A DNA stretch of 64,000 bases from Candidatus Peregrinibacteria bacterium (GCA_020429235.1 JAGQLQ010000025.1:310-64309); one strand, 5' to 3'; numbered from the stretch's first letter, positions 34,945 to 42,128 are shown. The notes: a model not told the origin generated them from the letters alone. Made by a program: numbers and translations.

Positions 34945-35277
34945 ATGTCTCAACGCGAAAAAAAAGAACAACTTCTCCGTGATGAGATGGAGCGATGCAT
35001 TTTGCTCCCTCCTGATGAGAAGAAATTCTGGATTGAAAATGCTGCGATTCTACCAAATGCAATGCTGGATGAAGTGTTCCGCATTGTTCAAGAAAAAAAT
35101 GAAACGGTGGATCGATACATTGAAGCGGCGCTTGCCGAGGATAAAGATCGAAAATATCTCTCGGAACTGAAAGCCAAGATTAAAAAAATGAAAACTGAAG
35201 CTTTTGCAATGGAGGAAAAGAGTGAGGAAGAGAGTGTTGAAGAAATCCTGGAACAACAACTTGAAGATCTTTCATGA
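34945..35277 (+). CDS. Small acidic helical protein, translationally coupled to the giant kinase gene
   Basis: 110 aa with an acidic C-terminus (EEKSEEESVEEILEQQLEDLS). Its stop overlaps the ATG of the next gene (ATGA at 35274-35277). Confidence 0.6.
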   Translation: MSQREKKEQLLRDEMERCILLPPDEKKFWIENAAILPNAMLDEVFRIVQEKNETVDRYIEAALAEDKDRKYLSELKAKIKKMKTEAFAMEEKSEEESVEEILEQQLEDLS

Positions 35278-38200
35278 CCGAAAAACTTGGCGGACAGATA
35301 GATGTGAAGCAACAAGAGATTGAAAGTCTTAAGGGGCCTGCAGCGGCGAAGACTGAAATTTCAAGGTATCGGAGTACCTATGTTAATGCTGTTGATTCAG
35401 GCCAAACAGAGATGTTAACGGCTGCGGGAAAATTGAAATCCCCTGAAGCCAAGGCCTATTTAAAAAAAGCTTCTGGAGAGATTGCCGGCCAGCTTGGATC
35501 CATGGCGGATCGGGGACGGGAGATTATTAAAGCTCATGAAGATACCAAAGAGGGAAAACCTGAAAAGGTTCCGAGTATGGACCAATTGAGTGGTGATCTG
35601 AGTAAAAAACTGGGGCAGCTTAAAAAATCTATCGATGCATTTAAAGTTTTGGAGGAGATTGAAAATGATGATCTTCCAAAGGTTGAAAAAGCAAATGGGA
35701 AATTGAATAGCAGTGAGGGTTCAAAAGATCCACTCACGATTTTTTCTGCAAAAGAGAAATTGTTGGGCGATCTGAATCGTTTAAGTCCAAAGTTTATAAG
35801 CACTCCTGGCTCGCGTGAATATTCAAAGAAGGTTGTTAAAAAATATCAGGATCTGGCCAAAAAAATTGGCGAGGAAAAAGATGAACTGGCACTTGGCCCT
35901 ACAGCCCGACATATTATTGCCAATGATTTCTTTAAGTCTGTGAGCACCTATGAAACGCTTGTAAAAGCTGTTGAGAGTAATCCTTCAATGGAAACTCTTC
36001 GGGCAGCTGAGGCGCAGGCGGAGAAAATTGATCCTGTAAAAGCCCATGCAGAAATTTTTGATGAAAAGGAAGAAGGTTCGTACGCCTACATCAATAACAT
36101 GTATAAACACCTTGAGACTGAATTTGAAAAATCCAAATCCAGTTATGAAGGTTTGAAAGATAGTTTTGAAGAGGCAGAGAAAGAGGCTTTGACCAAGGCT
36201 GCGGAAAAAATGATTGCCGATATTGCCTCTGCTGAAAAAGAGACTGTCGGACCTTTATGGGATAAATATGAACCTTTATCAAGGCGTACTGATTTAAATG
36301 GTAAGGAGCTGGAGGATTATGAGAAAAATGAAAAGGCGCTCCTTTCAGCTTATTTAACGCTCAAAATGACTGTTTCCCCTTTTGTGAATAAGGAAACACA
36401 GTACAAGCTTCAGGGAGATATTTATGGAAAAGTTCAGGCCAAGATTAAGGAGATTGATGATCGGGTTCGGCAGATTGAGGTGAATCGTCAGACACGAAAG
36501 AGTATGGCCTCACTTGGTGAGGTTGGGGCTAATGTTTTTAGTTACGTCACTTTTTTGGGAGAAGAAAAGGATGGCAAGATTTATACTTTCAACGCGGCCT
36601 ATGATGCTCTTTCAGATGAAAAAAAACAGGAGGTGCGTATGGCTGTTGAGAGCATTATTGCGAGAGACCAGGCTGAAGTGAAGGCTGAAACTCAAAAAGC
36701 TATGGTGGAACTTTCAAAATCTACCGGTAATTTTGATCAAATTTCTGAAGTCCTGGGAGAGAAATCTAAAAAGTATGCTGAAGGTTTACAGCTTTTGGCA
36801 TCCGGAAAACATACAGAAGCAGTGGCCGCTTTCGAAGCTTATGTTGGTCAAACGTTTTCTGCCGAAGAACGCGAACTGAACTCTGCTGCTCTTGCTGATG
36901 CGCAGGAAAAGATCCGACTTATAAAATATTCTGGAGATTTTTATGAAGGATTAAAACAGTATGGAGCTGGGGATATTAATGCAGCTTCGAAAAGCCTTGC
37001 CGGCTATGTTAAGTGGGCGGAAGGCAGCGGCGATAAAGAGCTCCACAAAGAACAGATTAATCAGGCCCGTGAAGTGCTTCATTTGATTGGTTTAACCAAG
37101 GTGAAACAGCTGGATAATCTGCTTGAAGACGTGAAATACTGGAAGAAAAAAGATCTTCAGGATCGATATGGTAAGAATGGTGAAAAAATCGATTTCAGAA
37201 TTACAGGGCCGGAAGTGGATGTGATTGTTGATGGTATTCGTGGGTTGAAATCCAAGGTTCAAAAAGGTGAACTGATTGATTATGATGAAGAGTTTGCCAA
37301 GTTGAAAGCCAGTGTTCATTTATATTTGCAGAAGAATGCTTTTGATCCGAAAAATAATGTAATTGATAAATTTTCGGAACTTTATGAAGGGATGAATTCG
37401 ACGGATCCAGAGGTCCGAAAAAAAACATGTATTAAATTTGCCAAAGAACTTCGTGATCTCCGGGGATATGATAAAGCCCGTGAGTATTTGGATAAAGCTC
37501 TCGCAGATGAGTACCGTGAGGCGGCCAAAGATGTGAGTCAGGAAAAAATTATGCGGGAAATGTTGGGCGATAAGATGATTATGGATAATGTCCGGAAAGC
37601 GGCATCTGCCTATCTGACTGAATTTAAAAAAGATAATCCTGATATTCCGGAAGATCAATTGAGGAAACAGGCTGAACAGATTGTTTTTAATATGTGGCTC
37701 CAAAAGCGTTATTCCCGTGAATTGCGACATCATATGACCGGGCAGGGGCTTGCTGATTCTACTGAAGCTTTAAGTCTTTATAATAATTGGTCGCCGTATG
37801 AAGAGGATAAAGATACTTCATGGTACAAACCGTGGAATTATGAGTACATGAGTGCGGAGGAATATGATCAGTTTAAAGATGCTGCCAAAGAGAATCTGGC
37901 GTTGACGATTGCGACACTCCCTATTGGATTTGGTGCGGGTGCCGTTGGTGCGCAGATTGGGAAAGTGGCTTTTCGTTCGTTGGCAACGCGTTTGTTAATA
38001 CGAACAGGTGCTGCTGGAGCCGAAGCAGCAATTCTTGCTATTGAGGAGGGTGGTGTGCAGGCAATCCGGTTTGGATCTCAGGCCTGGAAGGCTCTTACCC
38101 CGCAGATGCAACGTGCCATTATTCTGTCCCGAGTTGGAGCTGGTGCCTTAAGTGTCACGGTAGAAGGAACGCTTCTCTTGGGAGGAAGTACTGTTGCTGA

Positions 38201-41525: not shown

Positions 41526-41552
41526 TAAAAATTATTGTATAATATAAATACT

Positions 41553-42128
41553 ATGGTTAATACAATGAGTTCATACGGAGATATGCCCGAATCGAACGAT
41601 CGCCCTGAAAGCTATTTAGCTGATGCAATTGAGAAGTTTGAGGCGTGTGAAAAGCGCACTTTTCAGCGTGTTCCTGACTCTGAACGCCCAGAACCTGATC
41701 CCGAACAGGATGTACCAATGAATCTTACTGCATATAAACAGGCATGTCGCGAAGCCGAAGCTGATGAAATTCTTTCTGAGAATCTTAAGCAATCAATTAT
41801 TAATTCTATTCAGAACGCAGACAACAAAAATCTCACAAGGCGATATCCAACCGGACAGAGACTCTTTTTTGCTCTTGTTCCCAAGCTTTCACTGAACGAA
41901 CCAACTGTTGAATTTTATCAACTTTATGTGACTTCGAAAGGTCTAACCTATGGCTATACTCCTGACCCAGGCTACTACTACAAACTTCTCCCTACAGAGG
42001 TGCAAGAAGCCTGTACATTTCAAGTCCCATTCTATGACAACATGCACTATCCAACCGATGATGAGCGCCAAGAGCTCATCGCCCGTGCATCGGAAGCGTT
42101 TGATAATTTGAAGCGTTTGCTGTCCTAA
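41553..42128 (+). CDS. Hypothetical protein immediately downstream of the giant kinase gene
   Basis: ORF in the same orientation, starting about 27 nt after the kinase stop. Candidate starts are ATG 41553, ATG 41565 or TTG 41535. No recognisable motif. Its stop abuts the nusA stop with no gap. Confidence 0.55.
   Translation: MVNTMSSYGDMPESNDRPESYLADAIEKFEACEKRTFQRVPDSERPEPDPEQDVPMNLTAYKQACREAEADEILSENLKQSIINSIQNADNKNLTRRYPTGQRLFFALVPKLSLNEPTVEFYQLYVTSKGLTYGYTPDPGYYYKLLPTEVQEACTFQVPFYDNMHYPTDDERQELIARASEAFDNLKRLLS

Follow-up and report, generated by a model that had tools for sequence, protein, structure and literature searches.

What is the purpose of a 2083-residue protein that ends in a Hanks-type protein kinase domain, seemingly carries no signal peptide and is encoded between two small genes in a Candidatus Peregrinibacteria bacterium? 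The three genes lie in a stretch of 64,000 nucleotides (GCA_020429235.1 JAGQLQ010000025.1:310-64309), referred to as the window throughout, with positions counted from its first letter. A first-pass annotation of this DNA had described them as a cassette, consisting of a small acidic open reading frame (ORF), a giant ORF that overlaps it by the tetranucleotide ATGA and an ORF of about 190 residues within about 30 nucleotides (nt) of the giant. ORF calling with translation table 11 recovered all three (Table 1); the ATGA at 35274-35277, common to the stop of the small ORF and the start of the giant, was read directly, and the first ATG of the downstream ORF, which encodes 191 amino acids (aa), lies 27 nt past the stop of the giant.

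Members of the candidate phyla radiation (hereafter CPR), also named Patescibacteria, are thought to live on other cells, and to our knowledge almost nothing is known of the proteins that they use on those cells. Here we show that the giant is a modular protein, that its C-terminal tail is replaced between close relatives as one unit with the downstream gene and co-varies with it, that this tail has the modelled fold and the residues of a protein kinase, and that the three genes are syntenic in related loci. We argue that the cassette is probably a polymorphic, toxin-like effector system, in which a constant delivery part is combined with an exchangeable payload and a payload-specific partner. 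The family would be a candidate CPR effector family, with a fast-exchanged modular payload, a partner gene for each payload and a front end unlike known secretion signals.

Replacement of the tail and the downstream gene as one unit

The limits of the exchangeable part can be read from DNA comparisons with two related loci. In blastn alignments, the window is 94.3% identical to the locus L006, from a Peregrinibacteria metagenome-assembled genome (MAG), between 30000 and 38560, matches nothing in it between 38561 and 42124, and is again 91.9% identical from 42125; compared with L003, similarity ends at 38576 and returns at 42128. The breakpoints therefore delimit a replaced segment that comprises residues ~1096-2083 of the giant and the downstream ORF. 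Sliding protein identity places the transition at the same region: the protein P0002, a near-identical fragment of the L006 giant, has 94-100% identity with the window protein as far as about aa 1075 and no relationship to it past about aa 1146. The tail of P0002 is 74-95% identical to that of the second giant of another locus (L001b), whereas the cores of the two proteins share only ~25% identity.

Across four tail types, the families of downstream ORFs sort by the tail that they follow and not by the relatedness of the cores. The ORFs behind the 'GGDEL' module tails of L001b and L006 are 77% identical, and those behind the HD-like tails of L001a and L013 share 30% identity over 226 aa (E 3e-45). 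Type C kinase tails (L003, L007) are followed by ORFs that match with E 2e-21 and have a C-terminal stretch of ~75 aa in common with the type A set. The latter set, behind the type A kinase tails of the window, L009, L010 and L011, is related with E 1e-11 to 2e-52: the downstream ORF of the window aligns along its full length with the ORF after P0055 at 44% identity (E 2e-52), its identity to the ORFs after P0031 and P0023 is 34% (E 3e-35) and 32%, respectively, and P0055, encoded in L009, carries its type A kinase on a core of a distant subfamily. No family or PDB match was found for the downstream ORF.

The upstream ORF behaves differently. Each of the 13 cassettes examined has a homologue at its 5' side, in most cases directly adjoining (25-96% identity, E 1e-5 to 7e-75), and its similarity broadly follows the core and not the tail, the copies of the window and L006 being 96% identical despite unrelated tails. 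The first-pass annotation had proposed a chaperone or partner for the giant. The roles of the two small ORFs differ: the upstream ORF is a helper or chaperone candidate that belongs to the conserved module, and the downstream ORF is part of the exchangeable tail, where it behaves like a candidate immunity or cognate-inhibitor gene.

The variable part opens with a junction mini-domain of ~55 aa, which directly follows the Gly/Ala-rich hydrophobic module of the giant in at least 22 members of the family and occurs twice in the multi-module proteins P0026 and P0030. A similarity stop at 38560-38576 is also where misassembly through the mixing of strains would be expected, and would have joined the front of one gene to the tail of another at about nt 38560; the first-pass annotation had named an assembly chimera as a possible artefact. 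However, an NCBI record from a 20-kb contig, P0005, holds an identical 1203-aa fragment (aa 881-2083) across the boundary, the order from core to HExxH domain (described below) is the same in P0006, P0009, P0041, P0043 and P0055, and the tail architecture of the window recurs in P0055 and P0031. Because an identical fragment spans the boundary, and because the boundary coincides with the family-wide junction domain, an assembly chimera is very unlikely indeed.

To define the family, we searched a profile of the conserved core (aa 385-1155) exhaustively against 1.84 billion representative proteins. Whereas a word-indexed search gave only four relatives, the exhaustive search gave 57 representatives with E<=1e-3, of which 34 reached E<=1e-30; the family is rare and consists of giants throughout. 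A word-indexed search with a 16-sequence profile added P0059 and otherwise generic kinases only, and a scan of metagenome contigs yielded one further close locus, L008. Full-length members comprise 1253-4547 aa, the shortest listed matches being fragments, and the core always lies at about residues 380-1450. Named records belong to Candidatus Peregrinibacteria, Candidatus Gracilibacteria and one MAG labelled "Pseudomonadota bacterium". The synteny of the three genes, on which the annotated cassette depends, was found in every cassette examined, and since homologous cassettes are present in at least 12 other loci, the cassette is not a chance ORF. The reading of the C-terminal region as an orphan, for which the word-indexed search returned only the identical fragment, was ruled out by the profile search and local BLAST, which detected homologues in P0055 (50%), P0031 (40%), P0023, P0024 and P0011.

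About half of the family ends in a kinase-like domain, for which local hidden Markov models (HMMs) distinguish three clades: type A (the window protein, P0055, P0031, P0023, P0024 and P0011), type B (13 members) and type C (five members). Among the other tails, Pfam recognised AvrB_AvrC in P0034 (82.5 bits), HopA1 in P0046 (72.5 bits), Fic in P0021 (E 1.8e-11), GGDEF in P0017 and Metallophos in one member.

Several further tail elements were seen by eye and are putative, namely HD-like, JAB-like and transglutaminase-like motifs and a widespread 'GGDELVVYHAG' module. A large module with 'IKIGGDELVVYHAG...FIDISNMGPTN', not recognised by Pfam, is encoded at 17116-22074 of L001 and 8849-14533 of L006, and the 'IKIGGDELVVYHAG' module is also present in P0021, P0023, P0024, P0027, P0028, P0030, P0031 and P0034; its GGDE motif recalls, by eye only, GGDEF-type nucleotide cyclases. 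Directly behind P0021, the Fic-tipped giant of L012, a second gene codes for a Fic-domain protein of 298 aa (4001-13098). This standalone gene was considered as an orphan copy of the tail and rejected as such, the two sharing 34% identity over 58 aa only and the junction motif being absent; that the second protein reverses the modification is speculation.

Kinase, HExxH domain and constant front end of the giant

The annotated kinase motifs of the window protein all stand where they had been placed (GVGGLG at aa 1734/nt 40473, VMKK at aa 1758, HRDIKPEN at aa 1928/nt 41055 and D-A-G at aa 1948/nt 41115). The catalytic residues, comprising the glycine-rich loop 1734-1739, K1760, E1837, D1930/K1932/N1935 and D1948, are kept in five to six aligned relatives, and an insert of ~75 aa separates strand 3 from helix C. 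Taken by itself, the sequence supports a kinase weakly: Pfam PF00069 (Pkinase) scores 25.7 bits with the whole protein and 30.6 bits with the isolated domain at a cut-off of 31.7, covering profile positions 91-149 only; a phmmer search of PDB matched the kinase to DMPK/ROCK with E 6e-7, PDB kinases aligning around the catalytic loop only. The identical partial protein P0005 has a precomputed PF00069 match and the NCBI name Ser/Thr kinase.

An AlphaFold2 (AF2) model of aa 1160-2083, made with a 16-sequence alignment, reached a mean predicted local distance difference test score (pLDDT) of 86; a single-sequence AlphaFold model of the kinase region had a pLDDT of 42 and was not used. Foldseek returned 787 PDB matches for the AF2 model at E<=1e-3, and among the matches listed all were protein kinases, including PknA/B, FGFR, IRAK4, LegK4 and ROP18, with ~380 aligned columns and a TM-score to the target of up to 0.64. 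The viral library likewise gave kinases only, the HExxH part of the model being swamped in both libraries. The first-pass annotation had let its kinase assignment stand or fall with a protein-kinase fold and a catalytic Lys/Glu pair. The region is modelled as a bilobal kinase fold and the pair is present (K1760, E1837), and the assignment therefore stands. On this basis we regard the domain as real, complete and active-looking, with its activity predicted.

Between the hydrophobic module and the kinase, the annotation had placed a region of ~640 aa with an unknown fold. The region does follow the module, but it is not featureless, holding the junction mini-domain and a conserved HExxH domain of ~245 aa. 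In 16 sequences of this domain, which share 24-49% identity, K1273, H1275, E1276, H1279 and E1341 are invariant (KxHExxH…E) and D1348 is nearly so. The domain was found in 15 other representatives by HMM and BLAST, and in 16 members it precedes the terminal domain. The AF2 model places HExxH on helix 106-126 and E1341 on helix 177-188 (model numbering), which are consecutive long helices after a small sheet; as modelled, HExxH with E1341 as putative third ligand on the following helix corresponds to the zincin pattern. The all-helical region between HExxH domain and kinase occurs only with a type A kinase, homologous regions being present in P0055 (36%), P0024, P0031 and P0023.

The constant front end consists of the K/E-rich N-terminal region of about 870 residues and the Gly/Ala-rich hydrophobic module of about 215 residues, and the composition of both agrees with the annotation (Table 1). 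The N-terminus of the giant (MTEKLGGQIDVKQQEIESLKG...) contains no hydrophobic stretch and therefore, by inspection, no Sec-type signal peptide, as had been annotated. Conservation of the core is highest in its first ~85 aa, with 70% identity to P0004 over the first 83 aligned residues as against ~30% elsewhere. Several glycines of the Gly/Ala-rich module are invariant across six members, and, at a Kyte-Doolittle threshold of 1.6, a single 19-residue segment qualifies (aa 875-893); judged from its sequence, the module is amphipathic rather than a clear multi-span membrane domain and only marginally transmembrane-like.

Database searches related none of this front end to a known family. The profile of aa 385-1155, which includes the Gly/Ala-rich module, had no PDB relative, and aa 1-1160 had no Pfam, NCBIfam or PDB match. 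Against Pfam, where it was run as five sub-segments with E<=5, and against NCBIfam, PHROGs, PADLOC and, as a profile, PDB, the conserved core had chance or coiled-coil-like matches only, and the upstream ORF had no match in Pfam, NCBIfam, PHROG, PADLOC or PDB. Since the front end matches no family, a trafficking module located in it would have to be new.

Genomic setting of the cassette

The cassette is embedded among housekeeping genes for PilB, DprA, NusA, RecA, UvrD and ArgRS, and this synteny is kept across genomes. As annotated, it is divergent from pilB, whose product is identified by its T2SSE and MshEN domains (Table 1). The pilB gene adjoins the cassette in the window, in L001, L003 and L006 and at the second cassette of L009, and this adjacency is absent at L002, L007 and L010-L013; a strict functional tie to pilB is not supported on these grounds. 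Several genomes (loci L001, L009, L010, L011 and L012) contain two cassettes, which are arranged in tandem in L001 (9651-22664) and flank an ABC-AIRS-DprA-PilB block in L009 (7665-14771; 20335 onward). Between the two cassettes of L010 and L011 lie a conserved gene for 259-261 aa and a gene for 169-175 aa.

Table 1. Position of the cassette, its parts and its flanking features in the window. Amino acid (aa) ranges are those of the giant; pI, isoelectric point; GRAVY, grand average of hydropathy; T2SS, type II secretion system.
Feature	Position	Strand	Properties and basis
PilB-type type IV pilus/T2SS ATPase, divergent	33048..34904	-	Pfam T2SSE E 1.4e-114, MshEN E 1.3e-9
Promoter-like site TGGAAA-17-TATAAT with upstream TG, before the small ORF	34888..34916	+	Consensus match
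Upstream small ORF	34945..35277	+	110 aa from ATG, acidic, pI 4.65; helper/chaperone candidate
Giant ORF	35274..41525	+	2083 aa
K/E-rich N-terminal region, aa 1-870, presumed helical	35274..37883	+	K 12%, E 11%
Gly/Ala-rich amphipathic hydrophobic module, aa 871-1095, last part of the conserved core	37884..38558	+	G 16%, A 16%, GRAVY +0.31
Exchangeable unit, giant aa ~1096-2083 and downstream ORF	38561..42124	+	blastn vs L006, L003
Junction mini-domain, aa 1106-1160, start of the variable part	38589..38753	+	KPxxIxxA.VT.DG.V.INGK...LP...R..I; local HMM
Conserved HExxH domain, aa 1158-1403, candidate zincin-type metallopeptidase	38745..39482	+	Alignments, HMM
All-helical middle region, aa 1404-1714	39483..40415	+	Helices at high pLDDT; no family match
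Hanks-type protein kinase domain, aa 1715-2082	40416..41519	+	AF2, Foldseek, catalytic residues
Promoter-like site TTCACG-17-TATAAT in the last codons of the giant ORF, before the downstream ORF	41515..41543	+	Consensus match
Downstream ORF	41553..42128	+	191 aa, acidic, pI 4.59; immunity/cognate-inhibitor candidate
NusA, conserved right flank of the exchangeable unit	42129..43385	-	Pfam NusA_N, KH_5

The number of promoter-like sites in the region does not exceed the shuffled expectation, and the site before the small ORF is therefore weak evidence. The site at the end of the giant ORF would fit a separately expressed gene of the immunity type, such sites again not being enriched over shuffled sequence.

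As the nearest NCBI records are labelled Gracilibacteria, a label that covers lineages reading TGA as glycine, genetic code 25 had to be considered, the closest genome record being labelled Peregrinibacteria. ORFs of 3138, 2087, 1535 and 1155 codons contain no in-frame TGA, and TGA serves as stop in seven of the 36 long ORFs of the whole window. Long ORFs free of in-frame TGA rule out code 25; TGA is therefore a stop codon here, as in the standard code, and the ATGA overlap is genuine.

Other genes of the window deserve brief mention. A tyrosine recombinase of the Phage_integrase family is encoded upstream of the ABC-AIRS-DprA-PilB block, close to the recombining locus (28996-29991, plus strand); it has the same position in L001, adjoins the first cassette in L009 and is probably a XerC/D-type housekeeping enzyme. 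Between NusA and RecA lies an ORF of 256 aa (43475-44245, plus strand) with no Pfam match, and ORFs of 254-255 aa occupy the same place in L003 and L006. An ORF of 1534 aa (22381-26985, minus strand), which Pfam does not match, which is free of hydrophobic segments and which is not related to the giant family, has a counterpart of ~1520 aa at the corresponding position of L001. Four large SLH-domain surface proteins are encoded on the minus strand (7047-16460, 26957-29014, 48740-52204 and 53239-55920), among them a DUF11/DUF7619/SLH giant of 3137 aa and a protein in which GEVED and SLH are fused to a C-terminal sortase domain, and the envelope of the organism appears to be of the S-layer type and rich in giant surface proteins.

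Effector reading, alternatives and known systems

A polymorphic effector system is the best fit to the signature features of the cassette: its front end is fixed, a junction element leads to an enzymatic tail that recombines, the gene directly downstream is specific to the tail, a genome can have multiple cassettes, and some tails contain classic domains of delivered effectors. The polymorphic design, together with the AvrB, HopA1 and Fic tails of relatives, gives the effector idea strong indirect support, and we consider it on balance the probable explanation. In such a system, the helper protein would bind the N-terminus of the giant and keep it export-competent, and the giant would leave the cell by some route and engage another cell. 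There, the amphipathic Gly/Ala-rich module might insert into the membrane and help the tail to cross, which is the weakest step of the scheme, and the HExxH domain, as its motif and position suggest, could cut the tail free. The kinase would then phosphorylate target proteins, while the downstream protein, inherited together with the tail, would neutralise or escort the kinase in the producer. Because the partner is tail-specific, the producer or its kin would need protection, and this speaks less for a eukaryotic host than for a bacterial target or, at the least, for a need of the producer to protect itself.

Several observations weigh against an effector. The searches of Pfam, NCBIfam, PHROG, PADLOC and PDB recognised no trafficking domain (LXG, WXG, PAAR, RHS, TPS, VENN etc.), the giant seems to lack a signal peptide, and the 64-kb window contains no secretion machinery besides pilB. 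In the window protein, the Gly/Ala-rich module barely attains the transmembrane threshold, and in many homologues it stays below it throughout. By sequence, the HExxH domain matches no known peptidase family (phmmer and profile searches against PDB; Pfam on 16 members). Moreover, kinases are an uncommon payload of classical polymorphic toxins, and kinase, phosphatase, GGDEF and HD tails are also typical outputs of ordinary bacterial signalling.

The last point leads to the main rival explanation, according to which the giant is a cell-autonomous, membrane-associated signalling scaffold whose N-terminal part senses or anchors, whose tail is the output and whose downstream protein is a substrate or regulator. 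It would explain why neither a signal peptide nor a known secretion domain is present, why about half of the tails are Ser/Thr kinases and others are Metallophos, GGDEF and HD-like, all common signalling outputs, and why the genes lie amid housekeeping genes in conserved synteny. However, the outputs of a housekeeping sensor should not be wholly replaced between genomes whose flanking DNA is 94% identical, AvrB, HopA1, Fic and HExxH domains are of the effector type and not signalling outputs, and the co-replacement of the downstream gene and the presence of multiple cassettes per genome better suit conflict systems, so that we hold a scaffold to be unlikely. Swapping of effector domains occurs in anti-phage and abortive-infection defence systems, too, in which case the N-terminal part would sense infection, the tail would kill and the downstream protein would act as an antitoxin-like brake, a role with which an effector-specific neighbour gene is consistent. 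The kinase does have weak matches to defence families (PADLOC PD-T4-6, E 1.4e-8, and mad6; PHROG kinase, E 1.6e-8), but these cover only the ~60-residue catalytic-loop region common to all kinases (aa ~1895-1957 for PADLOC), and neither the two small ORFs nor the rest of the giant match a defence family in PADLOC or PHROG. AvrB and HopA1 are, by their Pfam family names, known as effectors delivered into other cells, and the locus lies outside a defence island, next to NusA, RecA, DprA and PilB; we therefore rate defence as distinctly improbable.

We assign only a slight chance to the explanation that the giant serves an episymbiont structurally, at its surface or in adhesion, with tails diversified in adaptation to host range. 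Genes for several giant surface proteins are present in CPR genomes, as they are in this window, and for Vampirococcus giant membrane proteins have been proposed, in general terms only, to serve host attachment (PMC8080830). Unlike the SLH/DUF11 giants of the window, however, the giant of the cassette has no signal peptide, SLH domain, sortase signal or adhesin repeats, and its tail is built of cytoplasm-type, ATP-dependent enzymes.

If the cassette is an effector system, a further step, possible but on present evidence doubtful, is that the front end and its ~110-aa partner form an unrecognised delivery module, self-translocating or assisted by the pilus ATPase, which injects exchangeable payloads such as eukaryotic-like kinases, AvrB, HopA1, Fic and phosphatases, released by the internal HExxH domain acting as a protease, into host or rival cells. 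This would be the first defined effector-delivery system for the Peregrinibacteria/Gracilibacteria-type CPR part of the bacterial tree, and confirmed delivery would define a new trafficking module. The family would also offer a catalogue of payloads with matching inhibitor candidates (three kinase clades, Fic, AvrB-like, HopA1-like, phosphatase and, by eye, HD-like and GGDEF-like) and would extend plant-pathogen type III effector families, through homologues, to a lineage in which they were not expected. Were the giant cell-autonomous, the swapping of a 3.6-kb unit between genomes of 94% identity would still mark diversifying selection as strong in this reduced genome.

The design principle of the cassette is already known, and the comparison with known systems concerns how far the likeness extends. 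Our literature searches, whose incomplete coverage does not prove absence, found no description of the family, be it of its front end, helper and HExxH domain, of the downstream partner families or of the lineage. LXG toxins of the type VIIb secretion system (T7SSb) combine a helical N-terminus with a small helical Lap helper encoded upstream, a variable C-terminal toxin and a downstream immunity gene. The cassette resembles them in lacking a signal peptide and in its small upstream helper gene, variable tail and downstream partner, but this is resemblance without homology, and the giant is 3-5 times larger. No LXG match (PF04740) was found in aa 1-385 even at E<=5, no WXG100, DUF3130 or DUF3958 match in the cassette, no LXG-, Lap- or WXG100-type match for the upstream ORF and no EssC/EccC FtsK-type ATPase within the 64-kb window; membership of the LXG/type VII class was rejected for want of a match of any kind, and our literature searches found no report of a type VII system in Patescibacteria.

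MARTX and large clostridial toxins have a cysteine protease domain, defined repeat or delivery domains and export through a type I secretion system or a holin-like route, and they have no immunity genes. They combine, in a single very long chain, a membrane-translocation region, an internal autoprocessing protease and one or more enzymatic effector domains that vary between strains, for which the giant has candidate counterparts; no sequence similarity to the giant was found. Legionella LegK proteins are secreted effector kinases of a host-associated bacterium, and LegK4 (5clr) ranked fourth in the fold search; the eukaryotic-like kinase fold and the intact catalytic core are common to both, whereas delivery signals and genomic organisation differ. 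As ordinary receptor and cytosolic kinases score equally well, the fold does not indicate a specific relationship to LegK.

Polyvalent proteins are known from phages and conjugative elements; their genes belong to mobile elements, and the proteins are delivered together with DNA (Iyer et al. 2017, PMC5512222). Like the giants, they are very large and carry several conflict-related enzymatic domains in a row, often with a zincin-like metallopeptidase thought to process them. Unlike them, the cassette resides on the chromosome in conserved synteny with housekeeping genes, its surroundings contain neither phage nor plasmid genes, and PHROGs gives only a generic kinase match; both a polyvalent protein and a phage tape-measure protein were rejected on genomic context.

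The closest parallel is the logic of polymorphic toxins, for example CdiA-CT/CdiI, Rhs-CT and LXG toxins (Zhang, Aravind et al. 2012, PMC3482391). The cassette departs from it in lacking known trafficking domains or repeats, its front end of ~1100 aa being a new family, in payloads that are dominated by Hanks-type kinases and are in part multi-domain arrays of 1000-3000 aa, and in a distribution so far confined, bar one Pseudomonadota record, to records labelled Peregrinibacteria or Gracilibacteria; the immunity function of its partner is putative. In its other traits it follows polymorphic toxins closely: a conserved N-terminal part is joined to an enzymatic C-terminal part that is replaced by recombination between close relatives, a short junction element and possibly a releasing peptidase lie in between, the downstream gene co-varies with the tail, and a genome can hold several cassettes.

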